A DNA stretch of 33,706 nt, from the IMG/VR virus record IMGVR_UViG_3300014886_000120; one strand, written 5' to 3'. Every line of letters begins with the position of its first letter. Position 1 is the first letter of the stretch. Of this stretch, positions 12,211 through 31,001 are shown piece by piece. Origin of the DNA: a virus (lineage: Duplodnaviria; Heunggongvirae; Uroviricota; Caudoviricetes). Below the pieces are notes generated by a model, which worked only from the letters and a program-made list of their open reading frames with translations, was not told the origin of the DNA and searched no databases. The position numbers and the translations under genes are program-made.

Positions 12211-13173
12211 CTAATAGGCTAGAGCATTGAGTGAGCTTGAAGACACTTCCACTATCTGGATGGCATTAGCTGAAGAACTTGACCTAGCTGTGAATGGAAG
12301 CTCTATCTCTATAGGTTCAAGCCCAGATATCTCGTCAGGTAGCTCACCAAAGGTAACATTGTTCAGAGTGATAGTTATAGTGGAACCAGTCTTAGCCAAT
12401 GTTATCTGTATAGTATTGTCTTGTCTTCCCTTAACTGTACTAGCTATGGTATTGAACTGTCCCCTCATAGTGATTCTACCTTCAACTTCTAAGGCTCCTT
12501 CTCTCAGTTCCACCGGATAGTATGTACCAGCTCCAGTTGAATACATAGCCTCAAGGTTATTGTTAGTTGACACCACTATTCTTCCTACCAGTGTACATGG
12601 TATCGTACCACTGGAGTTAGTTATCTGGAGAGATGAATGATGGAATGCAAAGGCTTCCTGGCTAAAGTCTATACTAGGCTTAGGTAGGTTTCCAGTAACA
12701 GGTAGCACTGCCATATTCTTACCAGCAAAGTTTAGCTCTAGTCTCACATCTCCAGTATCCTCTATGGTTAGCTCAGCTGTATCAACCTTCATTCCGTAGT
12801 ATTCCAAGCTAACAGTGTTCCCATTCTCATCTGGAGCTAAGCCTCTGTAGATGGTCATTGATGGAACCTTTGAAGCTACTGCATAAGTAGATTCATATGG
12901 GGAAGTAGTACTGGCTGTAGAGACGGTACCAAGAATGTACTCAAATATTTTAGCTGATACAAGTTCCTGAACCCATCTTCCTACTACTCCTTCCTCTAAC
13001 CATACAACCTTCCTGAAGTCTCTGGAGCCTCCTATTACATCTTCTTCAGACTTGTTCTCAGTGGTAGTAGCTGACCATTCCAGCAAGTAGTTTGGGAAAG
13101 TATCTGGAGTGATAGATTGACCCCATACGTTCTCTTTCTTGAAGAGTATCCATCTATCCTGATAATATGACAT
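12211..13173 (-). CDS. Major tail (tube) protein, 320 aa
   Basis: First gene of the tail operon; GGAGGT RBS; motifs KEN.WG, PSMTIYRG, Y.GMKVD.AEL, L.LNFAG, NNNLE, G.LEVEGRIT, IELPFTA typical of siphovirus tube proteins. Confidence 0.85.
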   Translation of the reverse strand: MSYYQDRWILFKKENVWGQSITPDTFPNYLLEWSATTTENKSEEDVIGGSRDFRKVVWLEEGVVGRWVQELVSAKIFEYILGTVSTASTTSPYESTYAVASKVPSMTIYRGLAPDENGNTVSLEYYGMKVDTAELTIEDTGDVRLELNFAGKNMAVLPVTGNLPKPSIDFSQEAFAFHHSSLQITNSSGTIPCTLVGRIVVSTNNNLEAMYSTGAGTYYPVELREGALEVEGRITMRGQFNTIASTVKGRQDNTIQITLAKTGSTITITLNNVTFGELPDEISGLEPIEIELPFTARSSSSANAIQIVEVSSSSLNALAY

Positions 13174-13302: not shown

Positions 13303-13464
13303 ATGAAGTTGAGTAACATAGATGAGATTAGGGAAATACTGGAAGAGATGAGATACCACAAGGAGAAGTACTATGAGCTGCTTAGAAGAGTTATAGCATT
13401 GTCAAAGGACATACCTAACTTCCGTATAGACCTGGACACTCTGGAAATAATAGAAAATAAATAG
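13303..13464 (+). CDS. Small helical protein, 53 aa (MKLSNIDEIREILEEMRYHKEKYYELLRRVIALSKDIPNFRIDLDTLEIIENK); start may be TTG 13309; not in the ORF track
   Basis: GAGGT RBS at 13297-13301; open frame to TAG 13462-13464. Confidence 0.65.
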   Translation: MKLSNIDEIREILEEMRYHKEKYYELLRRVIALSKDIPNFRIDLDTLEIIENK

Positions 13465-13502
13465 GACATTAAACACTTAAAGTATTAAAGGAGGTAAAGA
13501 AC

Positions 13503-16500
13503 ATTCTAATCAAGTTTCTAGGTACAAGAGGATACGTAGATACTAGCTCCAGGACACACAAGAATAGGGCTTCCATAATAGTCACATCCATGGATACTTC
13601 ACTTCTAATAGACTTTGGAGACCTTTATTCTCCAGAACAGTTCCCGGAAGTTAGTAATCTTCTGATAACCCATAAACATCCAGACCATATTGGTGGAATA
13701 TTGAAAGATGAGTTCAAGGAAAAGAAGGAACTGTATGATCATGTCAGTCTTTACCTATCTAATCAAGCTTATGTCAAGGAGCTGCCGTCATTCCTTAAAG
13801 TTACTAAGTTCAAGAGAAGAGACAGCTTTAAGATAGGAAGCTTCAATATCACAAGTGTTCCAGTCTTACATAGTGTCAAAGCTCCAAACGTAGCTTTGTT
13901 CATAAGTGATAACAAACACAAGATATGCTATTGTTCAGATGTAGTAAGCATCAGGAAAGCTGATAGAGACAAGTATCTGAAGGGATGTAGTGTCTTTATA
14001 GGGGACCTAAGTACTCACAAGAAGGGTGGTTTAATAAGGAAAGCTAAACATGATGAAGGTACCTTGATAGGACATGCAGATATTAGAACTCAGCTAGCCT
14101 GGTGTAGGGATGCTGGGGTTCCAGTCTGTATCTTCACTCATCTTGGGACTGATCCTATTGAGCTAGGAGATGGAAAGCTTAAAGATTTATTATCCACATT
14201 AGAAAATAAATATGGGGTAAAGATAATTATAGCTAAAGATGGAGACAAGTATGACATAGAGGATTTGGTGAATATGTCAGAAAGAGAGTTATTAAGGGAA
14301 GAGCTTCAGCTTAAACCAGAAGATGTAGAACCTATAACCCCTAAGGCTTTTCCAAAGACCCCAGAGTATGGATTAATCCTTGTAGCTCCACATCCAGAAC
14401 TGATATGGAAGGGAGAAAAGACAGCTATTGTAAAGTCTGTTAAGCTAAAGTCACATATCAATGAGCCTCTATATCTCTTGGATATAAAGAACAAGCTGTG
14501 CTATGGTATCATTCAGCTCAAGGAACCAGTGGAAATATCCAGAGAAGATTTCATCAAGAGATATGATGAGCATAGAGTCAGTGAAGAAGAAAGAAAGAGA
14601 TGGGCTAAGAAAGAACCTAGCTGGAACAAGTTCCCCTTATACCTATACGAGTTCTTCTTTACCAAGTTTGAAGCTCCAAAGCCCATAAGAGTGAAGGTCA
14701 AGGGACCACAGATATTCATCAAAGCTTCCAATATCGAGTTCTTATCTCCTAAGCTTATGACGATGGAAGAGCTAGAGTATTTCCATAGCTATTATCATTC
14801 TTGTGGAGAGCTACTTTCACCATGTTGCAAAGAGCATTATGTCATAGCTTTGGAAATGTTGAATAGAGGTATTCCCCATCTATCTAGAACTCCATGTGAT
14901 AGACCGATAGAGCTTATCACCAAGGAAACTGCAGAATACATCAGAAACATCAAGGATGTAGAAGACCGTCCATTAGGAGATGACTTCAGGATAGTATTAG
15001 CTTGGTACTCGTCCATTAGAAGAGGAAAGAAGCTGAAACGAAAGGATGGTACACCTATAACTATAGAAGATTGTAGAAAGCTTGGTCTGGCTATAGTTAA
15101 GGAAATGATAAGGAGACATAAAGAGTACGAGAAGAAAGGTATCACCAAGTTTACATTCAACAAGCCGGAAACATACAAGAAATATGCCAGGGAACTGTTT
15201 GAGTGGATAATCAAGCAGATAGGGAAGGACAACATACCATGGAAAGAAGAGAAAGAACTGAACTATATCTCTCAGATATACTCTGTACTACCTGCTGGTA
15301 TGAGGATAGAAGACATAGATCCTCCTTACGTTATAGGACTGACAGATGAAGAGCTTATCAAGCTATGGGAGTTCCTGGTTGACAAGGCAAATGAAAGCGC
15401 TAGTTCACCAGAAACGATACCAGAGAACATCCATGATGCTGGAGTATTTGTAGGGATTGAGCTCTACAAGAGAGGCTTGTGGGATGATGTAAAAGGTGAC
15501 AATATCCTTACTAAAGCTGTAGAGCTTGAGGTTTCTGAATATCCAACTCCTAAGGGCTTGTTCTTTTCTGAAGCTGAAGAATCAGAAGCTATCTATCCTG
15601 AGCCAGAGGGAGAATACATCAAGCTGGAAGATGTACTGAAAGCTTTACCTCCTCATTTGATAGTTAAGGGAGAACCTTATGGGGCCTATCTTACTGGAAG
15701 AATAGTGAATGAGGGAAGGATACCAAAAGATCATGACATAGATTTACTGTTTAGACAGCTGCCTGATCCTAGGATAGTTGAAGCTGTAAAAAACCTGAAG
15801 CCTGAATGGTTAGCTAGGAGGATACACCCAGTCTTTGATCCATTTGGTCCATACATAGGATACAGCCTAAACGTCTATAGATATGGCTTCTTTAAGCTAC
15901 CTGACAATCTTATGATCAGAGACTTTGGTCCATACAGGTTTGAGAAGCTAGCTAAAGAAATCAAAGTAGGAAAGCCTATGATAGGTGTAAAACCACGTAG
16001 TGGCTTTGGTAAGTTTGAATTCTGGGATCCAGAGGAAATGTACAGGGAGTGGGCATCAAAATACTTAGAGGATGGGATATTCGTACAAGAGAAAGTAGAT
16101 GGAAGACGTATGCAGCTGCATGTAGACAAGGCAAAGAAGCTGGTTAAGATAATCACAGAGGACAGACAGAGAGACAGAGCTAGCCAGTTTCCAAACATAG
16201 TAAAAGAAATCATGGATAAGCTCAATTGTGAGAGCTGCATACTTGATGGAGAGATGGTAGCTTTTGAGATACCTCCTAACAAGGTGGTTAAGTCTGCCAA
16301 GCTCAAGAGACAGATGGATCTTATGGAAAGAGAAGACACTGCAGCTATAACTGTCGGAAAGGTTCCTCCAGAGCTTGAGGACAGAATAGTGTATGTTTTC
16401 TACGATATTATGTACCTGGATGGTAAGCCTGTAGTAGACTTGCCATATTCTGAAAGGTTCAAGCTGTTAAAGAAAGTGGTTCCCAGAGATGCTCGTTATC

Positions 16501-18317
16501 TGGACTTGGTAAGAAGTATATTTACAGATACACCTGGAGAATTCTTAAGAGCTGTGGAAAAGATGAGAAGAGCTCCTGGTTCAGAGGGTGTAGTAGCCAA
16601 AGCAGCTACCATGAAGTACCCAGTAAAGTATAAGGGAGAAAACAGAAGTGACGAGATGTGCATCACTGGAGGAAGCTATATTCTTACAGAGGAAGGTTTC
16701 AAGAAGGTATGTAACCTTAAAGTTGGAGACCTAGTATTTGCAAAAGATGGTAAATTACATAGAGTGCTAAGAATATTGAAGCGTTTGGTTGGTAGTGAAG
16801 AGAAGCTTTATGATGTCAGAAGCAAAAACCCAGGAGGTATAAAAGTGAGGTTAACAGGAGATCACAGAGTTATGACTAGAGAGGGATGGGAAAGAGCTGA
16901 AAATATTAACAATAAGCTGGGAGTCCCTATAAGAATTAGCCTTCCAGAAGAACCATACCCCAAGCGTCTTGAGCTAGAGTGGCATGGATATAAGAAAATT
17001 ATTAAGTGTACAGATGATTTCTGGAAATTTATTGGTTTTTGGTTAGCTGAGGGAAGCTTAGGAAATAATAGATGCAAGAGCTATAAGAGAGGAGAACTAA
17101 CATTCTCTCAAAAAGATCCAAAAGTCTTTGAATACTATGCTGACCTAGCTGATAAGCTTTTAGGTGTTAAAGGGAAGAGATATCAGTATAACGGAATCAA
17201 TATCTATATAGTATGGGATAAGCCTTTCTGTGATTGGCTATCTAGACATTTCTTAGATAGAAATGATGATAAGACTATACCCTGGTTTATAGGAAGCTTG
17301 CCAGAATCCTCGTTTAATGCATTATGGAATGGCTATAGAGATGGAGATAGATGTCATAAGTTCTCAGATGATATAATTACTTCAGATCCATCCTTAGCTG
17401 GTAGAATGTATGCTATCTTGCTTCATAGAAACGAGACAGTCAGTGTGGTATGGAGAAAGACTAGGAAGAGAAATTCCTTTATTATTAGAAGGTTAAAACG
17501 GCCAATAACTTCCTATAGAATAGAAGCTAAAAGAGTCTATACTGATAAGAAAGACTGGGTATATGATATTGAAGTGGAAGGAGAGGAGTCTTTCTTATCT
17601 GGCAATATAGTACTACATAATTGTAAGCTCAAGAACCTTAAAGAGATAGATGTCATGGTATGGGATGTAATAGAAAAGAAACGTAAAGAGACTGGAGAAC
17701 CCCTAGGGAGCTACATGTATATCTCAGTATATCTTATCCCAGAAGAGAAGGTTGATGACTTTCCTAAGAACAAGGTGGTAGAGTACAAGGGAAAACACTA
17801 TGCCATCATAGGTAGAACTTATGCTACTAACGTCAAGTGTAAGAGAGGTGACATCATAACAGTCATGCCTATCAGGATAAGGAGATATGAGAGTAAAGAA
17901 GGCAAGTATTTCTATACCTGGATGTTCCCTTACTTCAAAGAAAAGAGATCAGACAAAAAAGACCCAGACACACTTACTACTGTAGAGAGAATAGCTAAGC
18001 TTGGTACAAGACCAGCCAAGCTTACTGAGACACTTGAAGAGACTATTGTGGTTAAGCTGCCTATCTGTGAGTTCAGTGAATACCCAGAGATATGTCCCCT
18101 AAAGAAGATATTTGGTAAGCCAAGGTACCATGAACTTACTATCTTGAAGATTGAACACCTTAGGTTCCCGGTAGCTTGCCCATTAGCTAATATCAGAAGA
18201 TGTGTATTCCTAAAAGATTATTACTATGGGTTTAAAACTTACAAGAGAGGAAAGCTATCTAATCTGGATGGTGAATCTAACATTATAGTAGTAGGAGATG
18301 AAGAGTATGAAGATTAG
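13503..18317 (+). CDS. Multidomain protein (~1604 aa): MBL-fold hydrolase, ASCH-like domain, His/helical domains, minimal nucleotidyltransferase, ATP-dependent DNA ligase (adenylation + OB) with intein, Cys-rich tail
   Basis: MBL HKHPDH at 13671-13688 plus downstream H, D, H, H motifs; ASCH-like GLILVAPHPELIWKGEKTAIVKS; NTase LTGRIVNEG...DIDLL; ligase motifs EKVDGRR, LDGEM, FYDIMY, EGVVAK, (M)CKLK and FPYFKEKRSDK. Start placed at ATT 13503 (see findings); ORF track start is ATG 13590. Confidence 0.85.
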   Translation: MLIKFLGTRGYVDTSSRTHKNRASIIVTSMDTSLLIDFGDLYSPEQFPEVSNLLITHKHPDHIGGILKDEFKEKKELYDHVSLYLSNQAYVKELPSFLKVTKFKRRDSFKIGSFNITSVPVLHSVKAPNVALFISDNKHKICYCSDVVSIRKADRDKYLKGCSVFIGDLSTHKKGGLIRKAKHDEGTLIGHADIRTQLAWCRDAGVPVCIFTHLGTDPIELGDGKLKDLLSTLENKYGVKIIIAKDGDKYDIEDLVNMSERELLREELQLKPEDVEPITPKAFPKTPEYGLILVAPHPELIWKGEKTAIVKSVKLKSHINEPLYLLDIKNKLCYGIIQLKEPVEISREDFIKRYDEHRVSEEERKRWAKKEPSWNKFPLYLYEFFFTKFEAPKPIRVKVKGPQIFIKASNIEFLSPKLMTMEELEYFHSYYHSCGELLSPCCKEHYVIALEMLNRGIPHLSRTPCDRPIELITKETAEYIRNIKDVEDRPLGDDFRIVLAWYSSIRRGKKLKRKDGTPITIEDCRKLGLAIVKEMIRRHKEYEKKGITKFTFNKPETYKKYARELFEWIIKQIGKDNIPWKEEKELNYISQIYSVLPAGMRIEDIDPPYVIGLTDEELIKLWEFLVDKANESASSPETIPENIHDAGVFVGIELYKRGLWDDVKGDNILTKAVELEVSEYPTPKGLFFSEAEESEAIYPEPEGEYIKLEDVLKALPPHLIVKGEPYGAYLTGRIVNEGRIPKDHDIDLLFRQLPDPRIVEAVKNLKPEWLARRIHPVFDPFGPYIGYSLNVYRYGFFKLPDNLMIRDFGPYRFEKLAKEIKVGKPMIGVKPRSGFGKFEFWDPEEMYREWASKYLEDGIFVQEKVDGRRMQLHVDKAKKLVKIITEDRQRDRASQFPNIVKEIMDKLNCESCILDGEMVAFEIPPNKVVKSAKLKRQMDLMEREDTAAITVGKVPPELEDRIVYVFYDIMYLDGKPVVDLPYSERFKLLKKVVPRDARYLDLVRSIFTDTPGEFLRAVEKMRRAPGSEGVVAKAATMKYPVKYKGENRSDEMCITGGSYILTEEGFKKVCNLKVGDLVFAKDGKLHRVLRILKRLVGSEEKLYDVRSKNPGGIKVRLTGDHRVMTREGWERAENINNKLGVPIRISLPEEPYPKRLELEWHGYKKIIKCTDDFWKFIGFWLAEGSLGNNRCKSYKRGELTFSQKDPKVFEYYADLADKLLGVKGKRYQYNGINIYIVWDKPFCDWLSRHFLDRNDDKTIPWFIGSLPESSFNALWNGYRDGDRCHKFSDDIITSDPSLAGRMYAILLHRNETVSVVWRKTRKRNSFIIRRLKRPITSYRIEAKRVYTDKKDWVYDIEVEGEESFLSGNIVLHNCKLKNLKEIDVMVWDVIEKKRKETGEPLGSYMYISVYLIPEEKVDDFPKNKVVEYKGKHYAIIGRTYATNVKCKRGDIITVMPIRIRRYESKEGKYFYTWMFPYFKEKRSDKKDPDTLTTVERIAKLGTRPAKLTETLEETIVVKLPICEFSEYPEICPLKKIFGKPRYHELTILKIEHLRFPVACPLANIRRCVFLKDYYYGFKTYKRGKLSNLDGESNIIVVGDEEYED
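16659..17621 (+). mobile_element. Intein with LAGLIDADG endonuclease (321 aa) in ligase motif V
   Basis: N-terminus CITGGSYILT, C-terminus VYDIEVEG...VLHN followed by +1 Cys; LAGLIDADG-like FIGFWLAEG and LWNGYRDGD; splicing restores RSDEM-CKLK. Confidence 0.92.
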
Positions 18318-21300
18318 AAAATGGATGTTAGATGAGCTAGCTGTTCCTGAATATATAGCTAGGGAACTGACAGCTAAGTATATGGAATATGTAAAAGAAC
18401 CCAAACCATTTGTAATGCAAGCTCACTATATTGGAGATTCTCAACATGTAGACTTTAGATTTAAAGTAAATGGCTTTTTAGAAGGCTGGTCAGTACATCC
18501 CAGAGAGAGAGTGCTAGTCTGGTCCTCGAAAGGCATAGAAGCTCCAACGCTTGAGGAACTATTTTCAAGATTCAAAAATATAGAAAAGATAAATGGCTAT
18601 GAGATGGTTAGACCATCTTACTATAAAGCTCTAGCTTTCAAGGGAGGTATAGGATACTGGGTTCCAATTACAGCAATAGTCAGACATAGATATAAAGGAA
18701 AGATCTTAGAGCTTGATCAAAAGTGGGGTGTAATAAAAGTCACTCCAAACCACTCTGTCTATTCTCAGGAGTGTACTCCAGCTAAGGCTTCATCCAACCC
18801 TGAGATCCTTGGTATCAGAAACATCTCTTATTCTCCAAGAGGAGACTCTATCAAGCTCCATGCCCGAGGTCTATTTCAGAATGGTGATAAAGTACAAGCA
18901 AGAAGAAGCTTTATACCTTTACCAATTGAGCTGAGAGGTAAGCAGCTAAAAGCTTTCTTATATTTCCTTGGAGCTTTTATTGCAGAGGGATGTGTTCATA
19001 AGAAAACTGATGGAAGCTATCTAGTTCAAATTGGTAATAATAATCTTGACTTCCTTAAGAGAGTTCAACAGTCTATCTCTGATTCTCTAGGGATTACATC
19101 CTGGATATCAGGACCAGACTCAAATGGAACGTATACTCTAGGAATGTCCAATAAAACCCTCTATTACTACTTGAAGAACAATGTTGGAGCAAGTTCTCTA
19201 GAGAAACGAATTCCTCCAGACGTTCTAGCTCTAAAGTAGGACTGTCTAAAGGTACTATGGAAGTCTCTTTGGGAGGGAGATGGGTGTGATAAATGGAAGT
19301 CATTTTCAACCAGCTCGGAGGAGCTAGCTATTCAAGTATGTTTCCTGCTTGGATTGTTTGGTAGTAACTTCACTGTGAAAAAAAGTGTAGATCCCAAGAG
19401 TAGGCATTATATCTACAATATTCTTTTAGTGGACCATTATCATCTAAACAAAGCAGAACGTAAAATTGGAGAGATAGATTTTGAAGGGTATGTATATGAC
19501 CTCTCACTTGAGCCTCTTCATAACTTTGCCTGTGGTCTTGGCTTGGTAGTTTGCCATAATAGTATTGTCGGAGGTTCCAGAGATGATCCCCATACTCCTC
19601 AAAAGTTCCTAGAGAATATAGGAAAAGGGTTTAGAGCTGAGACTAAGTGTGTTAATCCATTCTGTAATGAATGGAAGTATGAGCTAATAAAGGTAGAGAA
19701 TGGCATAGTTTATGTTAGATGGAAGACAGAGGAAGAACTATCCAGTCTTACTATGGAAGAGCTAGCTCGCCAGCCTTTACAGTGGCTAAAAGTAGAAGGT
19801 AAAGTAGAACCTGGAGAGGTAGGTGCTGGAGAAGAAGCTCCAGGTGAGTTTAAGATTCTTACTAAAGGCTTACTAATAACTGGAGCTCAAAAGCCATACT
19901 TCCATGAATATTTCATTAAAGACAACAAGTACTTCAAAGACTGGACCAGAATAGTCCTAAGAGCCATTAAGGTTAAGAAGATAGACCCTAAGACTAAGAA
20001 GCCTATACCTGGAGAATATGAACGTATGTGGAGATTTATGATACCAAAAGATCAGAAGCCTTATGCATTAAGCAAAAGAGCTATAGAGCATAAATGGAAG
20101 CCTCCTCAAAACATCAAGTATCCATTCCCGAAAGAATGGGCTAAGAAGAACTGGCCTAAAGAGTTTGAGAGATGGGAGCTTTACCTTAGAGGTGAACTAT
20201 CTGAACTTACCACTGTCAGGTTTACATTGGGTCTAGCTAGCTGGATGGGGCCTAGGGCTAAGACTGGAAGACAAATGCCTCAGATGAGATGGTTCCTCTT
20301 CCTGGATGACAAGGGTAAAGGAAAAGTAAGGACATTCCTGTTGGATGGATATCCACTAAAGGATGAGATAATGGCAGCTTATGAATATCCAAGAACTTCC
20401 AGGAAATGGCTGGACTATCAAGGTGAGACTGAACCTAACACACCCCCTGTTAACCCAAATAAAGAGCTGGTTGGCCAGTATGTCATAATAGACAGTGGAA
20501 CCGTAAGCTACACTACAAGAACTGAAGATGGAGAAGAAGTGATAGAGCTAGACTTTAAGGGTAAACGTCTGAAAGGGAAATATCAGCTGAAGCAAGAAGA
20601 GAAGGGAGCTGATGTATACATATTTGAAAAGCTATCGGCCCAGGTCAGCATGGCCCAGGGAGTGTTTGTTCTTGACAAGCACTACTGGCCTGAAACGTCC
20701 AAGGAATATCACCTGGACCTTAGATTCAAGCTTCCAGAATGGGACTACCTAAAGGAGTTTAACATATGGGAAGCTAAAGGTGTGGACGATTTAAAGAAGC
20801 TTGAGGTTCCATACCCAGCTAGACTCAAGGAATGCAGTGACCTTGAATGGTTGAAGGTAAAGAAAACTGGTACCAGAATGAAAGCTTATGGTAAATGGTC
20901 CATAGCTGAGACTATAGATCATGGAAGCATAGAGATAATAGAAGATAGTCCTAGATTCATGTCCTTTAACATCAATGGAAAGAAGCTTAAGGGATACTAC
21001 ATAGCTAGGAAAGCAGATGGTCTATGGCAGTTCATGAAATCCAAGCTACCTAAACCTCTGTCTATATTTGAGAAGATGTATGAGATATTTGGTAAAGAAG
21101 GAGATCCAAGAGAAGGTAAACCATATGAACCATTCAAGATAGAGCAGAAGAGAGGATGGAACTACTTCATAGTCCATATTTATGACCTAAGAAAGTTTAC
21201 CAGAGTAGAACCAAGTGAAAAGACCAAGCTATACCTTCCTGAGCTAGACATACCTGAAGGAGTAGACATAGGGATAGGCCTTTATCCTCGTCCAGGAAAG

Positions 21301-21432
21301 ATACATGGAGCTAGAGTAGCCTACATAATATTTGACTCATCCAAGTGGACCCATGAACAAGCTATAAGATTTATTAGAGACAAGAAGCTTGATACATGGG
21401 AAGGAGAACAAATCAGGAGTAAGAGGAAATAG
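18298..21432 (+). CDS. Protein with three tandem LigD 3'-phosphoesterase (PE)-like domains plus a C-terminal domain; contains an intein and one in-frame TAG at 19237-19239 (joins ORF-track entries 18298-19239 and 19354-21432)
   Basis: Both ORFs share one frame (offset 1056 nt = 352 codons). PE motifs FVMQAH..HVDFR..GW|S and FVLDKH..HLDLR; LKVEGKVEPGEVGAG; IDSGT/IDHGS; GKRLKGKY/GKKLKGYY. Confidence 0.75.
18490..19560 (+). mobile_element. Intein with LAGLIDADG endonuclease (357 codons), interrupted by an in-frame TAG
   Basis: N-terminus SVHPRERVLV; block-B-like IKVTPNHSVY; FLGAFIAEG and LWKSLWEGDG; C-terminus VYDLSLEP.HNF...VCHN followed by +1 Ser. Confidence 0.88.
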
Positions 21433-21434
21433 AG

Positions 21435-21764
21435 TTGAATGCTATAAGCTGGATTAAACAAGTAAAGAAGTACATGAAGAAAATAGAGGAAGCTTCACCT
21501 AAGGACAGGTTAGGTTATATGTCAGAGATAGACAGATGTAACAAAGCTATATTTGCCTCTACTCAAGGATGGGAATACTGGCTATCCAATCCTACCATCA
21601 TAGACCAGTTCACTAAGGAAGAGCTTGAAGAGATGCTTGATGAGTTTAGGGAGCTAGCTCTACAGTTCCTAAGGAACGACATTAAATGGACAGAGCATTT
21701 ACTGGGCAAGGCTCAGATGTCAAAGCTAAAGTCTAGCTCTAGCTCCAGAAGATACATCACATAA
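21435..21764 (+). CDS. DUF2153-like conserved archaeal protein
   Basis: Pattern DRL.Y..EI..C..AI..S..GW..WL.NP.I...F.KEELEE......RELA..FL..DIK.T recognised from memory as DUF2153. Confidence 0.7.
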   Translation: MNAISWIKQVKKYMKKIEEASPKDRLGYMSEIDRCNKAIFASTQGWEYWLSNPTIIDQFTKEELEEMLDEFRELALQFLRNDIKWTEHLLGKAQMSKLKSSSSSRRYIT

Positions 21765-21812: not shown

Positions 21813-22472
21813 ATGCCAATAACAAGTTCAGATTTGTGGTTTAAGTATACAGGTACTGGCTCTACAACCAACCCAGAACAGTCTCTTGGTGGAAGCTTGA
21901 ACCCTAACACTATACCTTCTGGGGTAGCTAACAATGTGTTTGATGATGTAACTGGTCAAGAGTCTCAGTCTGGAAACATCAACCACTACAGGGCTATAGG
22001 TATCCACAACACTCTTACAACTCACATCTGGATGAACACTTCTATCAGGGTTGATGGATATGAGAGAGCTTCAAACACATTTGACATCATCTACTTTGGA
22101 GTAGAAAGACCTCAGGGTACTGAAGGTAACCCAGACGGTACTATCCAGACCATTTCATCTGAGACAGTGGAACCATCTGGTATCACCTGGACTGAAGAAG
22201 GTAATCCTTCTGCTTGGGTTCAAATCTCAGGAGCAGATTACGTTGGTTCTATAGGTCCTGATGACTGGGCAGGTATATGGCTAAAAAGAACTATACCTCC
22301 TGGAGCTGAAGCCTACAACAACAGGAGCTGTACTATACGGGTTCAGGGTGAGACCTCAGCTTCACCTTATGTCTATCCAGTCTCAGTTGTCTTTACGGTC
22401 AACTGGACAAGGAACGGTCTAAGCATACAGAGAGCATTCGATAGGAGATTGATAGCTAGAATAGTGAACTAG
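21813..22472 (+). CDS. Putative virion structural protein
   Basis: N-terminal MPI.SSDL.FKY...SLGG...NVFDDV...E...G...YR and later GIWLKR.IPPGA motifs of a family common in tailed-virus structural modules. Confidence 0.6.
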   Translation: MPITSSDLWFKYTGTGSTTNPEQSLGGSLNPNTIPSGVANNVFDDVTGQESQSGNINHYRAIGIHNTLTTHIWMNTSIRVDGYERASNTFDIIYFGVERPQGTEGNPDGTIQTISSETVEPSGITWTEEGNPSAWVQISGADYVGSIGPDDWAGIWLKRTIPPGAEAYNNRSCTIRVQGETSASPYVYPVSVVFTVNWTRNGLSIQRAFDRRLIARIVN

Positions 22473-22473
22473 G

Positions 22474-22887
22474 ATGAAGCTACACTTCCCGGAGCTTCAA
22501 CCATTTATTTCAGGCTTAGGCCTCAATATCAACAGGATGACTATCAGGGAGTACATCAAAAATATCCTGAAATATTTTTTGTTACTTATCCTATTGGGAG
22601 TATACCTCATATACAAACAGCTGAGTAAGGTTCAGGGCATGGCATTCTCCTATGGTATCCTTAAAGCTTGTAAGAGATGTGTGTATGGCAAAAGTAGAGA
22701 AGCATTAATAATCATCAGTGGAACTGGATATAGCAGGGATGGTGAAGCTTTAATAGTGATGAACTATAGGCATAGGAACTGGTACAGAAGGGGTGAGTGT
22801 TTAGGGTTTACCAGGTGTGGCAAGTGCTTAGCAAAGATAGACAATCCCTCACTAGATTTACCATGCAAGTGGAAGAGGCTGAGGTGA
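22474..22887 (+). CDS. Hypothetical protein with Cys pairs (CKRC, RCGKC) and a hydrophobic segment; start uncertain (possibly 22639)
   Basis: Fills the gap between neighbours; possible Zn-binding Cys. Confidence 0.5.
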   Translation: MKLHFPELQPFISGLGLNINRMTIREYIKNILKYFLLLILLGVYLIYKQLSKVQGMAFSYGILKACKRCVYGKSREALIIISGTGYSRDGEALIVMNYRHRNWYRRGECLGFTRCGKCLAKIDNPSLDLPCKWKRLR

Positions 22888-22892
22888 AGTAG

Positions 22893-23402
22893 ATGCCTCT
22901 GGATATTGACAAGGTAAGATTTGCAGTCTCACATAACTTGAGTATAGTATATGAAAGACACGTAGAGGTAAATAGAGATTACATAGCCCAGAAGCTTTCT
23001 GAGATAGATACTGATGCTATTCTCCAAGAGGAAGCTTCAAGGTTTACTATCTCTGTTTTATCCGATATAGATCTTGATGACATAAGGAACAATAGAAAGA
23101 AACCGTTATCATCTAAAAGGGAGCTTGAGAAGTTTAAAGAGCTAATCCAGCAAGGAGGTACAGCATATTACGTTTATTATACAAGTCCTACCGGTATCCC
23201 TGGTAAAATGTTTCAGTGGCATATGCCAGGAGAACCAGGATTCAAGCCTATCTTGAAGTCAAAAGCTCATGACATAGCTCAAGCACAAGTTGATAGAATA
23301 GCTGAAATAAATGCCAGAGTAAGAGTGGCAGCTCATATAACTAGGGAAATCCTGGAGGGATTAAAGAGTGGAAGATTGGGGGAGATGGATATCTTTACCT
23401 GA
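22893..23402 (+). CDS. Hypothetical protein
   Basis: GAGGTGA RBS; ORF of 169 aa. Confidence 0.7.
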   Translation: MPLDIDKVRFAVSHNLSIVYERHVEVNRDYIAQKLSEIDTDAILQEEASRFTISVLSDIDLDDIRNNRKKPLSSKRELEKFKELIQQGGTAYYVYYTSPTGIPGKMFQWHMPGEPGFKPILKSKAHDIAQAQVDRIAEINARVRVAAHITREILEGLKSGRLGEMDIFT

Positions 23403-24561
23403 TAGGCCTAGAGGAATCATATATGCTAACGATAAGATAATTGGGGGTACCCTGTACTCTGAGGGTGGAAGAGATTCAGCTATGAACAGATACAGTGACC
23501 TATATGCCTATGATATAGCTGCAGGAGCTTGGTCAACCCTTTCATCATGTCCCCAGATAGGAGATGCTGGTATAGCTGCTTCATTAGAACCTCAGTCTTT
23601 GTATGTACACACTGGGTATCCTGATGGATACTATTTCTATAAGTATGACATTCCAAATGACACCTGGACACAGAAAGCTGATCTACCAACTTACAGATGG
23701 GACGTCGTGGGAGGAGAAGTTAATGGAACTTTATATGTTATAGGTGGAAGTAGGAACCAGACATCTCCTAGATATGAAAATGAAGCTTATGATTATGAAA
23801 ACAATACATGGATTACCAAGACTAGTGTCCCTTATCCTACTCATAAGGGAGGATCCTGTGTTAATGGCAACAGTATTATTGTGATAGGTGGATGGAACAC
23901 TGATTCAAGCTTGCAACGTACCATTCAAATTTATGATACAACCTTGGATTCATGGGATACAAGTAGAACATTTCCTCCAGACAATTATGGAGAAGCTAAG
24001 GACTTAGCTCTTTCATGGAAACCCTTAGATGGAGTCGTTTATGTTATTAAGACTTTCATTTATGCTAATGATGAAGTGGGAGTATGGCCTTATACTTTAG
24101 CTTCTGACTCATGGGACTGGCCAGTACCTAGACTACATCCTTTCTTAGAGCTATTCCACAAGTCTAGGTTTGCAGATGTATACAAAGGTACTATTTATCA
24201 TGTTGGAGGTTCTACATGGGATCCTGACAGGTCAAGTACAAAAGAAACCCCTCACTTCTTTGCCTTTGATCCTAGACATTTTGTAATAGAGGAAGTCACA
24301 GCTACTCCTAGCTCTGTAGAAAGACCTGGCTCTAACTCTGTCCAGCTCAAATGTGTATGGCATGATATTGAAGATCTACCTGCTGGCAGCTATGCAGTTA
24401 ATTTCTGGTTAAGAGATGAACTAGATAATATGCTTGGACCATTTGGAGCTACTACTTACGTTAAGACAGGAACAATGAGATATTATGCTTACACTTATAT
24501 TGATCCACCTGATACTTGGAACCTGGGTAAATATGATGTGAAAGCCAAGGTGAGCAAGTGA
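23368..24561 (+). CDS. Kelch-repeat beta-propeller with C-terminal Ig-like domain
   Basis: Repeated GG...Y.YD....W motifs (YAYDIAAGAW, YKYDIPNDTW, LYVIGG..EAYDYENNTW, IIVIGGW..QIYDTTLDSW); GGAGG RBS with GTG start. Confidence 0.85.
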   Translation: MEDWGRWISLPDRPRGIIYANDKIIGGTLYSEGGRDSAMNRYSDLYAYDIAAGAWSTLSSCPQIGDAGIAASLEPQSLYVHTGYPDGYYFYKYDIPNDTWTQKADLPTYRWDVVGGEVNGTLYVIGGSRNQTSPRYENEAYDYENNTWITKTSVPYPTHKGGSCVNGNSIIVIGGWNTDSSLQRTIQIYDTTLDSWDTSRTFPPDNYGEAKDLALSWKPLDGVVYVIKTFIYANDEVGVWPYTLASDSWDWPVPRLHPFLELFHKSRFADVYKGTIYHVGGSTWDPDRSSTKETPHFFAFDPRHFVIEEVTATPSSVERPGSNSVQLKCVWHDIEDLPAGSYAVNFWLRDELDNMLGPFGATTYVKTGTMRYYAYTYIDPPDTWNLGKYDVKAKVSK

Positions 24562-24562
24562 A

Positions 24563-24937
24563 ATGAGTAAAGATACGGTTAGATGGAAAGATCCACATAC
24601 TGGCAAAGTCTATTACAGGAAAGGAAAGTGTAATCACTGTGGAGGATGTTGTACCACATTTTGTCCTCATCTTCGTATAGTAGCTCTTAGGGACATAAAG
24701 AAAGGAGAGAGCTTTAAGGGAGTAGGTGACAGCTCAGGGAATATCATCATGTTATGTGACATATTTGACAAAGATATAACTGTGAATACTGGATGTGTAA
24801 GAGGATGTAGCTTAGAGGTAAGGAAGAGCTTCCCCAAGACTCCCCTGGTTACTCCAGAATGTTGTTCGTTTTACTGGGTTGATGAAGAGGGTAAGAAATG
24901 GGTAAGAAAAGACTACTCTATGGGAGTCTTGGAGTAG
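24563..24937 (+). CDS. YkgJ/FliB-like Cys-cluster (CxxCGxCC) protein, putative Zn or Fe-S binding
   Basis: CNHCGGCC...CPHL...CDIF...C...C...FP...CC. Confidence 0.7.
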   Translation: MSKDTVRWKDPHTGKVYYRKGKCNHCGGCCTTFCPHLRIVALRDIKKGESFKGVGDSSGNIIMLCDIFDKDITVNTGCVRGCSLEVRKSFPKTPLVTPECCSFYWVDEEGKKWVRKDYSMGVLE

Positions 24938-27900
24938 ATCCAACTTACTACCTGAGTAATTCTGGTACTGGATATTCTAGTCTATGGAAGTTAGTAGAGA
25001 CAGCTCCTAGTAGTGCAGATGATACATCTTATGTAACTTTTCCTAAGGATCAAACCGGATATATGAAGGTAATCCCAGGAACTGAAAACACTACTATAAC
25101 ATCAGACTTACCAGCTACTTTTGATCAGTATGGATGGAGAACTGACTCTACCCTTAATGGTACTTTCCAGTCTGGTAACTGGACTTTTTATGTTACTATT
25201 ATAACAGGCAAGTATGTTACTGGAAACGTTACTGTATATGCTAGATTATGGAAGTCATCCAATGCTGATGGTTCTGGAGCTACTGCTCTTACTTCATGGT
25301 TGACTATAGCAACCGTCAGCTCTCCAGCAGCCAGTACAACTTATAATCTAAGTGGGACTGCCTCCATAGGAGAACTGAGCTTTTCTAATGAATATCTGTT
25401 TGTTGAATATGCCCTAGGTACCACCAGTGCTTGTGGAAGTGCTGTGGGATGTGAAGTAACTTTCAGATGTAATGAAGGTTCAAACCAGAGAATAGACACA
25501 GCAGCTTTCCAGGCTATTGAGATAGTTTCAAGATTATTAGGGTTATTATATAAAGTAATCTCATACCAGAAGATTTCCAAGCTTCTAAGCTTGATATTTA
25601 GTATCTTAGCAGCTGTTTCCGTAATCTCTTCATTCTCAGACAACCTGGACAAGTTTATACTCACCCTTCAGAAGGTGGGGAAAGCATTAGTTGCAGCATG
25701 TAGGGACAAGAAGCTAACGTTCAGAAATGTTGGATCATTCAAGCTAACCAATTGGCAGTATAGGAAGAGTCATGTGGTTAATTCAGCTTCTGGAGCTGGT
25801 ACTGGATACAAAGTTGCCGTTACAACTTTCTATTCTTCTGGAACTGACAATGGAGGTACAGTTTACCTCGATGGAAAGTGCAACAGTGACTTTTCAGATA
25901 TTAGGTTTACAAAAGCTGATGGGTTTACTCAGCTTAACTACTGGATAGAAGATAAACAAGACAGTGACTATGCCAAGTTCTGGGTAAAAATAGACGATGA
26001 TCTTAGTACTTCTCCTGCTACTATTTACATGTATTATGGCAACCCAGATGTACCAGGAGATTTGAGTAATCCATATAACATCTTTGAGTTCTTTGATGAC
26101 TTTGATGGAGAAAGCCTAGATACATCTATCTGGCAATATGAGCTCCATAGGTTCTCAGTGTCCAATTCTATCCTTAAGGGTACATTTGGATATCATCAAA
26201 TAAGAACTAAAGATACATTTGGTGATGTGGAAGTAAGAGTAAAATGGAGATTTACCTCTGGCGGAAGAGGACATATTGGCTTTAGACAAACTGCAGATGT
26301 ATATACTAGTCCAAGAAGACATAAAGGATATCATGTTAGCTTCTATAAGCCTGAGGATAATACTAAGTTAAGAGTATGGCCTGGTCAAGCTCAAGCACCA
26401 ACTGATCAGACTGGAACTTTTCCATCTACTGCTAACACTTGGTATATTGGGTACATTAGGGGATATGGAAGTACCATCTCAACACAGATAGCTCCTGGAG
26501 CTGATTATCTGTCAACTATAGATTCAACTATGTTATCCGGAGAGGTAGGTTTAGGAGTTGATGCTTTTGCTGATGAGCTGAGTGATTATGTGGAGTATGA
26601 CTGGATAGCTATTAGGAAATATGTGGAACCTGAACCTTCACATAGCACATGGGGAACAGAAGAGGAGAGAACTGGAATCTTCTATTCTGGCTCACAAATG
26701 GCCAGTCGATTCTCTGCTATTCTGTATGGTACCGGAGGAATAGTGAAGAGATATATGGTTTTGATTTATTCTGTTCTTCTTGGTGTTACGTATGCATCTA
26801 AGCTTTTAGCTGTCAAGTTTAGCTCCATATCTAGAAAGTTCAAGATGTGTGTCTCTAGGTTCTCTATCCATAATTTAACAAGCAAGGCTGGTGCACTTCA
26901 GTACAAGTTGTATAACCTAAGAGCTAGAGATGTTGTTTCTCTCCACTCTTTAAAGAAACTTGCATTTAGGAACTCAGTAGCTTTACACAATCTCTTAGCC
27001 ATTAAATATAGGTACCTTGACATGGCTCATAAGATAAGGACTTTATCTGGAAGACTTTTATCTTTTCTCCATAGCCTTTTCAGCTTTAGGTTCAGAGAGC
27101 TCAGTCTTTTATACCGGATACAAGCTCCTTTCCAGGCTGTATCTAAACAAATTACACTCTTGTACTTCCTCTTTAAGAAACAATTTAGAACCTCATCATT
27201 GGCTTATTCTATTAGAGCTTTAGCTTTCAAATCATTCTCACTGTTATATACCACTCGTTCTATTTTACACAGAGCCATCAGCCTCTTGGTTAATATCAGA
27301 AGTCTAACACTTTTAGCTTTCCATTTCAAGTACGTCTTAAGAGTGGCAATACTCCGAGCTGTCTCAATTGTATATTCAATAGAGAGGATCCAATCCCTAA
27401 CTTTAGGAATAAGGTATTCCATTCTTAATATAATATCCAGACTTTCAGCTCTAAAGTTTTCACTGTTTAAGCTAGCTGGGAAACCTCTATCTTTGGTCTT
27501 CAGCTTATCCAATCTTGTTTGGAAGCTATCAACCATCAGATATTTGCTTTCTGGCCTAGTACATAGAACATCTGGTTTGAGGTATTCTATTCACACTCTT
27601 GTTTCCAGGTTTTCAGTAGTCTCATATATACTTAATAGGTTAACATCAAGAGTTGCAATACTCAAGTTTAGTCTATCCTCTATCAGCTCAAAGATACTCT
27701 CTATTGTTTATTCAATAGCTCTAGCTTATCAGACAGTCTTTAGAACTATGAGCTTTCTCTACTCTATACTGAGAACTACCTTTAGAAGGTTCAGCTCAAG
27801 GTATGCCCTACTTAGTATAGTATCTAGAAACATTGTCTTACCATATGATTTGAAGTCTCTAGCTTCAAGAACTATATCTCTCGGATATAGTATTCTAAGG

Positions 27901-30900
27901 TATGTCTATACCAGCCTTGTCATAGTCTTCAGTGTACTCGAATATAAACTTAGAAAGTTAGTAATAGTATATTCGGGATATGTACTGAGACTCAAAGATA
28001 TACAGCTAAAGTATAATTTGAAAAGCCTAGCTTCAGCTCTAGTCTCCATCTTATACTCATCTTATTCATCGATATGGAAGACTGTTGGGTTAATCTATAG
28101 ATTGTTCCAGACCAGAACTAGACTATTTGGGCTAAGCTATAACATTAAGGGATTGGTATCCAGTATCACCCAGATTGTCTACAGCATTATTTCCATATCT
28201 GCAAGGTATCTAAAGATACTATACAGTGTAGCATATCCATTCCAGACGGTCTATAGGACACTTTATTACTTATACAGTATACTGGCTTTTAAAAGCAGGA
28301 TTCTACACTTCAAGTTTACAGTGTTTAGGACAGCCTATTCTGAGACAAGCTTGAAGTTCAGATTACTGGGATTGAGAGCTAAGACCATAGGAGTAGGATA
28401 CTCTATCAGGGAGCTGATTAGCAAGATAACAGCTTTTACCTTCAATGTACTATCTATAGTCGAGAGGTATCTCTACTCTGCCTATTCACTTCTCAATCTT
28501 GTTCCAAAGCTTATAGCCTTAAGATACCTTCTAACCATAATAGCTCTTAGAAGCTTGTCCCTGTCCTATGCTGTTAGAAGCCTTGCTAGTAAGATATCAT
28601 CAATGCTTTATTCTGTACTTCAGCTCAGACTGAAAGCTATAGGCTTAGTATATGATGTTTCTGGTCTGGCTTACAGAGCTTTCTCAGTTGTCTACGGAGT
28701 CTTATCTCAGATATACAAGAGCATAGTGTACTTTTATACCCTGAGAAACCTGGTCTTTAACAGTGCTAGCTTAGTCTATTCTGGTATTGGTAGAGCTCTA
28801 AGGAAGCTTGGATTTAGGTACTTTATCCTTGGGGCTATAGCATACAAGGTTCTCATCTCTGTCTATAACCTGCTTAGCTTTACCCTAAGGAACATCTACA
28901 TCAGGTTCACCATAAAGAACTTGGTAGAGAAGAGTACCAGCTTCATTTATAGCCTAAGTTCACTGGTAAGCAGAGCTTTAGTGTCTCTCCATTCAACAAT
29001 TCAGTATCTTTGGAAGTCAATCCAGCTAGTCTATTCTGTTAAAAGCTTGGTATCACAGTCCATATCCTCAATCTATTCAGTTCTAATACTCAGAGCTAAA
29101 GCCTTGATGGCTAGATGGAACATTAAGACTTTAATCTATAGACAGGCAACAGTATTATTCAGCCTCATAGCTAAGCTTTACAGGCCTGTTAGCTTGACGT
29201 ATACTTTGCTCAATCTTGTATCCAGGCAAATATCTTCTGTCTATGCCGTTATTTCCAGAATATTCAGAAGGCTATCCATTGTCTACCAAGTACTAGGTCC
29301 ATCTGTCTATAAGACTTTGATGCTTGTATACTCAGCTCTGGTACTTGTAAAGAAGGAGGTAAATGTTAAGTATGTAGTAAGGAATCTGGCTACCAAGCTT
29401 TGGTCTTTACTTTATAATGTAAGAACTCTATCCCTTAGGCTGCTAACCATAAGACATTCTCTTCTATCTATAATGACCAAGCTTCTACATGCTTATTATT
29501 CTCTCAACATCATGGTATCCAGAACCTTTATATCAATATACAATGTTTTAAACTCCACATTCAAGAAGATGTCTATTCTCTATGCCTTACTAGCCTATAT
29601 TGCTGGATCTATATCTCTCAGATATAGTTCATTTGTGACACTATTAAGGACTCTGTCTATAGTACACCAAGTTAGACTGATAGCTCTTAGAGCTATTGGA
29701 GTAATTTACAGCTTAGCTGCAAGAACCTTCAGAGCTCTGGACATAAGGTATAAAGTAGGATGGTTCATAGAGAAGACTCTGGGCATTATTTACAATCTTG
29801 GAGGGATTATTTATAGCTCTATATCTATGGTGTATTCTATCCTTGTTCCAATAGGTAAGCTACTAAGCCTGGTTCACAATGTTTTGTCTTCTGTATACAG
29901 AGCTCTATCCAAGACATACTCTATAGTATCTATATCTCTCAGATATACTTCCATGTTCTATACAGTTCTGGTCTATTCACTAAGGAGTCTATGGATAAGC
30001 TTCAGCATAAGGTCTCTACAGAGTAAGCTTATGGTTTCTATGTATTCTATCCTTAACACTTTATCCAGGAGTCTTAGAGTAGTATTCAGTATATTAACAA
30101 TAGCATTCAAGACTTCAGTTCTAAAGTTCAATGTTAACGTTCTGGTCTATTTAGTCACAACACTGGCACATTCAATAAAGGCCTTGGTAGCCAGAACAGC
30201 CAGCATAGCTTACACAGTCATTGAAAGAATAGGCAAATCATTTTCACTACTCTACAGAGTATACATAATCACATCTATCTACAAGCTTTTAACGCTGGGG
30301 TATAGAGTGTTGAATCTGGCATTTAGTACGTTCAGCTTGAAGTATGTCCTTTATACCTTAAGAATAAGACTTGTATCCATACTTTATGGCACTATAGCAA
30401 GAACCAGAACTTTCCTAAGGACCTATTATGGGCTCTTGAACATTAAGCTCGTAACTATATCTCTCAGATATAGAATCAAGAACATTGGATTAAGGACAAT
30501 GGATATTGTATATAGTTTAGTCCATATAGCAAGCTTGACCATGTCTGTCATGTACAGCACCAGAGTGCTACTTTACAAAGTTACAAGGATAAAGTATACA
30601 GTAAGGCACCTGGCTCAGAGGTCAATGACAGCTCTTTATGATATAGGAGGAAGAATAAGTGCTGTCCTATCAATTGTTTATACTGTCCTTATTCTACGTC
30701 CAAGAACTATGCCTATCAGGTATACTGTCAGGAACCTAGCTGTGCTTTTCACCAGCATTCTCTACAAAATAAGGAGCTCTATAGGAAAAACACTATGGAT
30801 CAGACACATGATAGCTACTTCGTTTGTGAGAGCTAAGCTTGTCTTTGGCTACTCTTATCAGGTGATAATGGAGATATCCATAGTCTTACAGCTGTTTGCT

Positions 30901-30999: not shown

Positions 31000-31001
31000 T
31001 A

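Follow-up and report, generated by a model that had tools for sequence, protein, structure and literature searches.

We analyzed a 33,706-nt stretch of viral DNA (IMG/VR record IMGVR_UViG_3300014886_000120; hereafter, the window), which is part of the genome of a tailed virus (Caudoviricetes). The window has a G+C content of ~40% and is organized as a minus-strand tail module opposing a long plus-strand unit, which opens with two overlapping genes. Gene 1 encodes a polyprotein that joins a metallo-β-lactamase (MBL) phosphodiesterase, an ASCH domain, a helical region, a minimal nucleotidyltransferase (NTase) and an ATP-dependent DNA ligase, and gene 2 encodes a protein with three domains resembling the 3'-phosphoesterase (PE) domain of bacterial LigD (Table 1). 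We propose that the two products probably work as one virus-specific machine that heals and seals DNA ends without Ku, following the logic of LigD. An earlier inspection of the letters alone (the sequence-only reading) had named the MBL, ASCH, NTase, ligase with OB domain and three LigD PE-like domains, and all of them are present where it placed them, with matching folds or profiles. Its picture of the open reading frames (ORFs) needed correction in other respects: both genes carry inteins, a TAG codon splits gene 2, gene 1 most likely begins at an ATT, the MBL is optional among relatives, and the second PE domain (PE2) lacks metal ligands.

Table 1 Features of the ligase–phosphoesterase locus and its surroundings (window positions unless another contig is named; a slash in an intein motif marks the splice junction)
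Feature	Position	Strand	Evidence or remark
Tail tube gene	12211-13173	- (tail module)	Pfam Phage_tube_2, E 2.6e-19
Ribosome-binding site GGAGGT	13490..13495	+	Read from sequence, 7 nt upstream of ATT 13503
Gene 1, multi-domain ligase polyprotein	13503..18317	+	1604 codons from ATT 13503; 1575 aa from ATG 13590
MBL-fold phosphodiesterase domain, short RNase Z / YhfI / PhnP / Apyc1 type	13503..14252	+	Pfam Lactamase_B_2; profile vs PDB
ASCH (PUA-like) domain	14355..14741	+	AlphaFold2 (AF2) model residues 31-159
Conserved helical region, ~285 aa	14742..15596	+	AF2 helices at predicted local distance difference test (pLDDT) 75-95
Minimal NTase domain (MNT-like, Pol-beta superfamily)	15597..15905	+	VIA fold match and invariant residues
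ATP-dependent DNA ligase adenylation domain, motifs I-IV and start of V	15987..16658	+	Pfam DNA_ligase_A_M, E 2.8e-24
Ligase motif I Lys	16092-16094	+	KxDG motif
Intein 1, 321 aa, Cys1...HN/C, LAGLIDADG endonuclease	16659..17621	+	Pfam Intein_splicing, Hint_2, Hint
End of ligase motif V (CKLK) and OB domain	17622..18002	+	Profile alignment to 4eq5
C-terminal tail, four nearly invariant Cys, putative zinc module	18003..18314	+	Alignment
Gene 2, triple-PE protein	18307..21432	+	Continuous reading frame except for one internal TAG; 11-nt overlap with gene 1
PE1 N-terminal part, H..H.D.R metal/phosphate motif (QAHYIGDSQHVDFRF)	18400..18489	+	Alignment
Intein 2, 357 aa, Ser1...HN/S, LAGLIDADG type	18490..19560	+	Inserted after 'FLEGW' of PE1; comparison with intein-free homologues
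In-frame TAG	19237..19239	+	Inside endonuclease domain of intein 2, specific to the window
PE1 C-terminal part, ARQPLQW replacing canonical EDHPxxY	19561..20046	+	Alignment, homologue model
PE2, degenerate PE-like barrel without His/His/Asp/Arg residues	20206..20646	+	hhalign vs PE3
PE3, invariant H..H.D.R; second motif RKxC..W	20647..21048	+	Profile
Conserved C-terminal domain of PE protein, ~110 aa	21100..21429	+	Alignment A7
DUF2153 gene, small helical protein	21435..21764	+	Pfam, E 1.1e-8
Travelling block	Window 21813-31316; L006 15919-22306; L008 2533-9655; L028 5801-9676		Occurs in two different orders relative to the module
ORF 31363-33705 (3' open)	31363-33705		Alignment A13

The ligase of gene 1, a gene whose architecture is common to 47 homologues, appears closest to the Lig1-type DNA ligases. 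Its family profile matched archaeal and human Lig1-type structures in the PDB over the adenylation and OB domains (E 6e-19), and profile positions 39-349 aligned with residues 260-559 of 4eq5, placing an OB domain after the adenylation core. In this and the other domains, invariance of catalytic residues was judged across 25-38 homologues. K864, D866, G867, TED885-887, E917 and EG1028-1029 of the ligase are invariant, as is the motif WMFP on the OB side; the lysine pair K1375/K1377 (K.K) reaches a conservation of at least 90%. Intein 1, which has the blocks of a class-1 homing intein (C...LTGDH...LHN/C), interrupts motif V between RSDEM and CKLK; its boundaries were set by alignment with intein-free homologues, and because it sits in motif V the ligase is complete only after its excision. 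The tail that follows the OB domain has four Cys residues (C1522, C1531, C1559 and C1567), each found in at least 90% of sequences, which may form a zinc module.

The protein encoded by gene 2, for which 94 homologues were found, shares the β-barrel fold of the LigD PE superfamily in all three of its PE-like domains: PE1 and PE3 by comparison with solved structures, and PE2 through its likeness to PE3. A model of PE1 from the homologue P0058 matched the stand-alone PE of Candidatus Korarchaeum (CkoPE, 3p4h) at Z 14.9, with a root-mean-square deviation of 2.0 Å over 117 of 118 residues, and the PE domain of PaeLigD (3n9b) at Z 12.7. The PE3 profile matched CkoPE at E 3.7e-11 and the Methanosarcina enzyme MbaPE (3p43) at E 7.7e-9. 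PE2 aligned with PE3 over 121 columns in hhalign (96.6% probability, E 5.6e-10) and weakly with PE1 (18%), and its sequence search of the PDB returned only noise (E at or above 0.016). Four metal/phosphate residues are invariant or nearly so in PE1 (H13, H20, D22, R24; alignment A4) and in PE3 (H12, H22, D24, R26; A6), and the invariant residues of the PE2 alignment include no metal ligands. The two archaeal enzymes, which are the best matches for PE1 and PE3 and share this His-His-Asp-Arg set, are single-domain cellular proteins of ~120-150 aa with a canonical EDH..Y motif, whereas the viral protein has three tandem copies, an additional C-terminal domain, a replaced His and an intein. The additional C-terminal domain gave only weak structural matches (Z below 4). 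We also observed a 39-aa insert in PE1 (CVNPFCNEW...; 19648-19764), between its ETK and ARQP motifs, that occurs in some homologues (P0083) and is absent from others.

That the two proteins act together, as the sequence-only reading had supposed, is borne out by relatives in which they are a single polypeptide, and we therefore treat them as one unit. The C-terminal 780 aa of P0011 are a complete triple-PE protein with 44% identity to P0058, and fusions of the same kind were found in P0012, P0015, P0016, P0021, P0010 and others, alongside ligase-PE fusions in P0082 and P0106. Ligase and PE occur together in all five related IMG/VR viral genomes that we compared (77-121 kb, four of them rated 100% complete), and even widely diverged members keep the domains in the order MBL-ASCH-NTase-ligase-PE. 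The constant core consists of the ASCH domain, the helical region, the minimal NTase, the Lig1-type ligase and the PE domains, to which an MBL is frequently added and, in some relatives, a D12 N6-adenine (Dam-type) DNA methyltransferase; the latter is fused in P0043, P0046, P0049 and P0141. These methyltransferase fusions, together with the Lig1-type ligase, lead us to favor DNA as the substrate. In P0046 (1203 aa), an AdoMet_dc (S-adenosylmethionine decarboxylase-like) domain stands between the MBL and the methyltransferase and may be a SAM-manipulating module of the anti-restriction type.

The middle region of gene 1 was characterized mainly by structure prediction, using an AF2 model of residues 226-801 (pLDDT 81.8). 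Within this model the ASCH β-barrel matched ZmASCH (5guq; VIA Z 10.7), 6kir (9.8), 2kku (8.9) and YqfB (8.6), as well as 2dp9 in Foldseek (E 5e-5), while by sequence the match to Pfam ASCH was weak, at E 0.059, with a distant relative reaching E 2.3e-3. The NTase resembled 2rff (VIA Z 6.5), 1no5 (5.9) and the MNT protein 8xeh (5.8), and reached Pfam NTP_transf_2 at E 8e-4 in the distant relative L017 and 2.4e-3 in relatives. Its invariant residues G39, N43, D52, D54, H82 and D86 (G..N..DxD..H..D) comprise the DxD motif and third carboxylate of a minimal NTase, set in an alpha/beta fold. The helical region between these domains has an invariant GDDWRI..W motif and several invariant Glu and Arg residues; it had no match in the PDB profile search, no clear structural match and no usable match in the ESM Atlas, and it did not match the DNA-binding domain of Lig1-type ligases by sequence or by fold, the fold search having used the multidomain model. 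A T4 endonuclease V-like glycosylase was considered for this region and rejected, as Pfam Pyr_excise matched 2 of 23 members at E 1.6e-3 and neither the PDB nor VIA supported it.

The N-terminal domain is an MBL phosphodiesterase, a frequent accessory that is optional among relatives. Pfam Lactamase_B_2 matched it at E 1.5e-14 (5.5e-16 with the extended N-terminus) and matched all 19 of the 19 MBL members; its PDB profile matches were RNase Z (1y44, 2e-11), 6kns and 7t28 (1e-9), PhnP (5e-6) and Apyc1 (3e-4). The fold, the HxHxDH motif and the downstream His, Asp and His ligands place it in the MBL phosphodiesterase group, with H57, H59, D61, H123, D146, H191 and H213 invariant and H62 conserved in at least 90% of sequences. 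The domain is absent from two of the four complete relatives, and for this reason trimming by the MBL, which the sequence-only reading had listed among the combined functions, is not a core part of the system.

The Apyc1 likeness bears on a different explanation, in which the domains would act independently as an anti-defence array: for instance, the MBL would degrade cyclic-nucleotide alarm signals in the manner of Apyc1, the NTase and ASCH would disturb signalling or modified nucleotides, and the ligase and PE would be an unrelated add-on. The window protein and several homologues have weak or faint precomputed matches to Anti-Pycsar_Apyc1, the E 3e-4 match is to the Apyc1 structure 7u2r, and Iyer et al. 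2017 (PMC5512222) describe 'polyvalent' proteins that combine unrelated effectors. The matches to RNase Z and YhfI-type enzymes are stronger than that to Apyc1, however, and the conserved domain order and the constant presence of ligase and PE also count against this explanation. To our knowledge, no cyclic mononucleotide defence has been documented in these archaeal hosts, and we regard this explanation as very improbable.

Another alternative is RNA repair that reverses the damage done by host ribotoxins, for example cuts in tRNA or mRNA that end in a 2',3'-cyclic phosphate, with the MBL opening cyclic phosphates, PE taking off 3'-phosphates, ASCH binding RNA, the NTase rebuilding the end and the ligase sealing it. 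This idea draws on the proximity of the MBL to RNase Z, PhnP and YhfI phosphodiesterases, on nearest ASCH structures that include the RNase ZmASCH and the ac4C (modified cytidine) amidohydrolase YqfB, and on sub-threshold Pfam matches to RNA_ligase and mRNA_cap_enzyme. Phage T4 offers a precedent for virus-encoded healing followed by sealing, in which the 5'-kinase/3'-phosphatase Pnkp and the RNA ligases Rnl1/Rnl2 act on tRNA. Here, in contrast, the same protein scores E 2.8e-24 as a DNA ligase and 2.2e-5 against RNA-type Pfam models, the Lig1 alignment runs through the OB domain, the Pfam scan of the two proteins detected no 5'-kinase domain, and the methyltransferases fused in relatives modify DNA. 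The MBL on which the proposal leans is dispensable in two of the four complete relatives, and LigD-type PE acts on DNA primer-templates. Given the DNA-type ligase, the lack of a kinase and the DNA methyltransferase fusions, we consider RNA repair unlikely, if somewhat less so than the anti-defence array.

The sequence-only reading had recognized that the module is placed with morphogenesis genes, and divergent relatives keep this position; in many cases the portal gene immediately precedes the module and the putative head protease and capsid genes immediately follow it. The order TerL-portal-polyprotein, with no gene between, was found in the distant relatives L017, L018, L022, L025 and L029. 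In closer relatives (L007, L008, L013, L015, L025 and L028), the module lies just upstream of a putative protease/scaffold gene, beyond which come the major capsid and tail tube genes. In the window itself it lies between the tail tube gene and fibre-like and protease-like genes, and a 9.5-kb fibre-like block (Kelch, a DUF2341 giant and a BppU-like protein) parts it from the protease-like gene at 31363. The product of that gene begins with a conserved domain of ~200 aa, in which His95 and Ser145/Ser166 are invariant, and continues with C2H2 zinc fingers. In relatives its homologues are encoded just ahead of the capsid genes, and a role as head-maturation protease or scaffold is plausible. Since the module occupies, in many lineages, the slot between portal and head protease/capsid, it is probably co-expressed with virion genes.

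This placement has to be set against the possibility that the protein is an ordinary viral DNA ligase for Okazaki fragments and nicks, fitted with accessory end-cleaning domains, that acts in the cytoplasm during replication or shortly ahead of packaging, is never packaged and lies beside the head genes by a historical accident of layout. Each of the five related genomes encodes exactly one ATP-dependent ligase, this one, and three of the five encode PolB; the Lig1-like core is also of the replicative type. In phage T4, the ligase is required to produce DNA free of nicks for packaging. As the sole ATP-dependent ligase, the enzyme may serve in ordinary nick sealing. Against it, the gene lies 25-35 kb from PolB, the complete relative G005 has the module and no detectable PolB, and the portal-to-protease slot is kept in many divergent lineages despite rearrangements. 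The fusions with Dam methyltransferase and AdoMet_dc follow the syntax of polyvalent proteins, and the DNA-binding domain of Lig1 was not found in the search with the multidomain model. On balance we think an ordinary ligase rather unlikely, though it is the strongest of the competing explanations.

Several results weigh against our proposal of a LigD-like machine produced with the virion, beginning with the single ligase per genome and the PolB genes just described. The second PE motif, E-D-H-P-x-x-Y (His84 and Tyr88 of Pseudomonas LigD), is not preserved: an alignment of hidden Markov models sets R-K-x-C..W of PE3 opposite ETEDH..Y of 3p4h, and PE1 has Gln and Trp (ARQPxxW) there, a correspondence by position only. 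The His of this motif is reportedly essential in Pseudomonas LigD PE, according to mutagenesis from the Shuman laboratory. As neither PE1 nor PE3 has a counterpart of the canonical His84, their use of canonical PE chemistry is uncertain. The concern of the sequence-only reading that the domains might be catalytically dead is answered in part, with H..H.D.R kept in PE1 and PE3 and the other catalytic residues invariant, but PE2 dead and the His84 equivalent lost. The fold match of the NTase is moderate, and its profile had no match among PDB sequences, and the Pfam scan found neither a 5'-kinase nor an AEP polymerase domain in the two proteins. The protease label of the gene at 31363, which helps to define the slot, comes from one weak PHROG match in a homologue (E 1.2e-4), with Pfam and PDB profile searches empty. 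Finally, the sequencing runs that contain the window sequence are seawater or sediment metagenomes, and no RNA runs are listed among them.

The closest known parallel is bacterial LigD, which combines a ligase, a 3'-phosphoesterase and an AEP polymerase in Ku-dependent non-homologous end joining (NHEJ). Both systems have an ATP-dependent ligase, PE and a nucleotidyl-transfer module, fused or adjacent, and in both a 3' end would first be healed and afterwards sealed. The differences are considerable. The sequence-only reading had noted no Ku, and a wider search upheld this: Ku (PF02735) was found in none of the five related genomes and among none of the window ORFs. A Pfam scan of P0001, P0002 and P0003 detected no AEP primase-polymerase, and a minimal NTase of the Pol-beta type is present instead. 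The PE domain is present three times, its middle copy dead and its second motif changed; the core of the ligase resembles Lig1 more than LigD and is accompanied by ASCH, MBL, helical and Cys4 modules; and the genes are viral and lie in a head-morphogenesis cluster. Viral use of NHEJ-type joining also has a precedent, as Pitcher and colleagues are said to have found in 2006 that the mycobacteriophages Corndog and Omega encode Ku and use the LigD of the host to circularise their genomes. Those phages supply Ku and borrow the ligase, whereas here the virus supplies ligase and PE and no Ku was seen. Circularisation by end joining, one of the functions put forward in the sequence-only reading, is not obviously needed here because the related genomes carry direct terminal repeats.

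The 'polyvalent proteins' described by Iyer et al. 2017 (PMC5512222) provide a second frame of reference. That paper proposes, from genome context and from known virion proteins such as MuF/gp7, that multidomain proteins encoded in such settings in portal-terminase phages are packaged and delivered. In bacterial phages the portal-to-protease slot contains MuF/gp7-type and polyvalent proteins, for which packaging is either known or proposed. Our proteins likewise are very large multidomain enzymes encoded beside portal and head genes, with domains, including D12 methyltransferases, shuffled among relatives. They combine several domains in one polypeptide of a virus with portal and terminase and are encoded with virion genes, as expected of members of that class. 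They differ in that no MuF domain was detected. Word searches of the paper found no MBL, LigD or ASCH, and 'ligase' occurs three times, one passage concerning ATP-grasp RNA ligases. The authors also note that such proteins are scarce in archaea, nearly every example above 1000 aa being bacterial. By this analogy, packaging and injection of the ligase-PE unit are possible.

From the folds and motifs, the fusions in relatives and the synteny, we infer activities, substrate, timing and packaging along the following lines. PE1 and PE3, and the MBL where present, would remove 3'-blocks such as a 3'-phosphate, a cyclic phosphate or a terminal ribonucleotide; the NTase may then add or activate a nucleotide; and the ligase, active only after intein splicing, would seal the nick or break in viral DNA. 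Given a gene position that suggests expression with virion genes, the enzyme might clean and seal the genome before packaging, or be packaged itself and co-injected. Three roles are therefore conceivable: injection with the genome, repair before packaging, and ordinary nick sealing. In the boldest version, archaeal tailed viruses would package a self-contained, Ku-independent enzyme for DNA break repair (ligase, phosphoesterases and NTase, with or without the MBL and a Dam methylase), encoded where bacterial phages have MuF-type ejection proteins, and would inject it with the genome to heal and seal, on entry, DNA damaged by heat or nucleases. This version is doubtful, and we offer it tentatively; it would be an archaeal equivalent of the bacterial polyvalent proteins, and we know of no prokaryotic virus that delivers a DNA ligase in its virion. 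The sequence-only reading is partly supported overall, as its domains and context stand and its mechanistic proposals are retained as hypotheses. If our proposal is right, LigD-style end healing would extend to archaeal viruses in a Ku-free form with a different nucleotidyltransferase. Because the viruses come from hot hydrothermal sediment, the module would be a source of ligases and 3'-end-cleaning enzymes that are probably thermostable. It would also provide a large archaeal-virus example of a polyvalent protein, a strategy that had seemed nearly absent from archaea (PMC5512222).

We found no description of this combination of ligase and phosphoesterase in the literature searched, in keeping with the sequence-only reading, which had not recognized it as a described system. 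A search of 50,697 GenBank phage records returned no match to the PE protein and none to the middle region (ASCH, helical region and NTase). A profile of the middle region retrieved 1322 representative clusters, 283 of them at E ≤1e-30; many of the 1322 align through the ASCH part alone, within other large proteins. Among 185,579 species genomes, six contigs from metagenome-assembled genomes (MAGs) matched, binned to unrelated taxa; these are probably viral contigs, and the family appears confined to such contigs. Relatives came mostly from Guaymas Basin MAG bins, and three other assemblies contain contigs of 110-128 kb near-identical to the window. The archaeal markers DUF2153 and C2H2 zinc fingers point to an archaeal-type tailed virus, one that is uncultured and comes from hydrothermal sediment.

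Gene 1 most likely starts at the non-canonical ATT at 13503. Its frame is open from 13473 and has its first canonical start at ATG 13590; from the preceding stop codon to the first conserved strand of the MBL it contains no ATG, GTG or TTG. The 29 codons from 13503 to 13589 encode the conserved first MBL strands and align with homologue N-termini, the ATT falling opposite their ATG; a start at ATG 13590 would drop these strands, which is why we prefer the ATT. A relative with 64% identity, L009, has the same layout of Shine-Dalgarno sequence and ATT (8186-8230), also without ATG, GTG or TTG, and in both a GGAGG(T/A) site lies 6-7 nt before the ATT. Gene callers cut the protein short at its N-terminus both here and in the relatives closest to the window (P0005, P0006 and P0007). 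Directly upstream of gene 1, in the divergent intergenic region, a small coiled-coil-like ORF of 53 aa (13303-13464) has no family match and is called as a gene in other assemblies too.

Inteins are unusually frequent in this family, and every insertion site coincides with an invariant motif. At least six motifs are affected in relatives: the MBL metal motif HxH, the third Asp of the NTase (VFDP), ligase KxDG, ligase motif V, OB WMFP and PE1 after GW. Intein-bearing relatives in alignment A1 are P0007, P0008, P0010, P0022, P0031, P0006 and P0034, the MBL-motif intein of P0007 having been read from its N-terminal sequence and not located by alignment, and at least 10 PE homologues have the length expected of proteins with an intein. 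Constrained active sites are the typical homing targets of inteins, and the sites found here are consistent with this habit. The six intein-bearing catalytic motifs offer natural material for studies of intein homing.

Intein 2 also has the blocks of a class-1 homing intein (S...TPNH...CHN/S), with Pfam matches to LAGLIDADG_3 (E 2e-7) and Intein_splicing. The window ORF that overlaps the ligase gene (18298-19239) encodes only the 64-aa N-extein of PE1, from ATG 18298, before it enters the intein, and it ends at the TAG. L001, L002 and L003, which differ from the window at 3 of 8101 bases, read AAG at 19237, and in three other assemblies the PE gene is called as one product of 1041 aa. Recoding of TAG, including as pyrrolysine, was considered and rejected: TAG is the ordinary stop of 9 of the 22 window ORFs, and reading it as sense merges nothing else sensibly. 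With AAG in the other assemblies and TAG an ordinary stop, the amber codon is therefore a strain variant or an assembly error. The change from AAG to TAG and a nearby change from TAT to TGT (19237-19244) both lie in the LAGLIDADG endonuclease domain, and natural split inteins are divided in the endonuclease domain. If the amber allele is real, either the host protein is lost or it would need re-initiation and trans-splicing.

Two groups of neighboring genes accompany the module. The DUF2153 gene adjoins the ligase/PE pair in the window and in L004, L006, L007 and L012. Alignment A12 of its products shows a helical core, a variable charged linker and a conserved Tyr-Val/Ile-x at the C-terminal end, which looks like a short docking motif; a search of the ESM Atlas returned only other DUF2153 clusters, and the name appears in a single paper. 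The genes p219, p137 and p169, the Kelch/DUF2341 giants and a small gene travel with the module, either downstream or upstream of it (Table 1), which suggests a larger conserved cassette that unites fibre- or adhesin-like virion proteins with the repair module.

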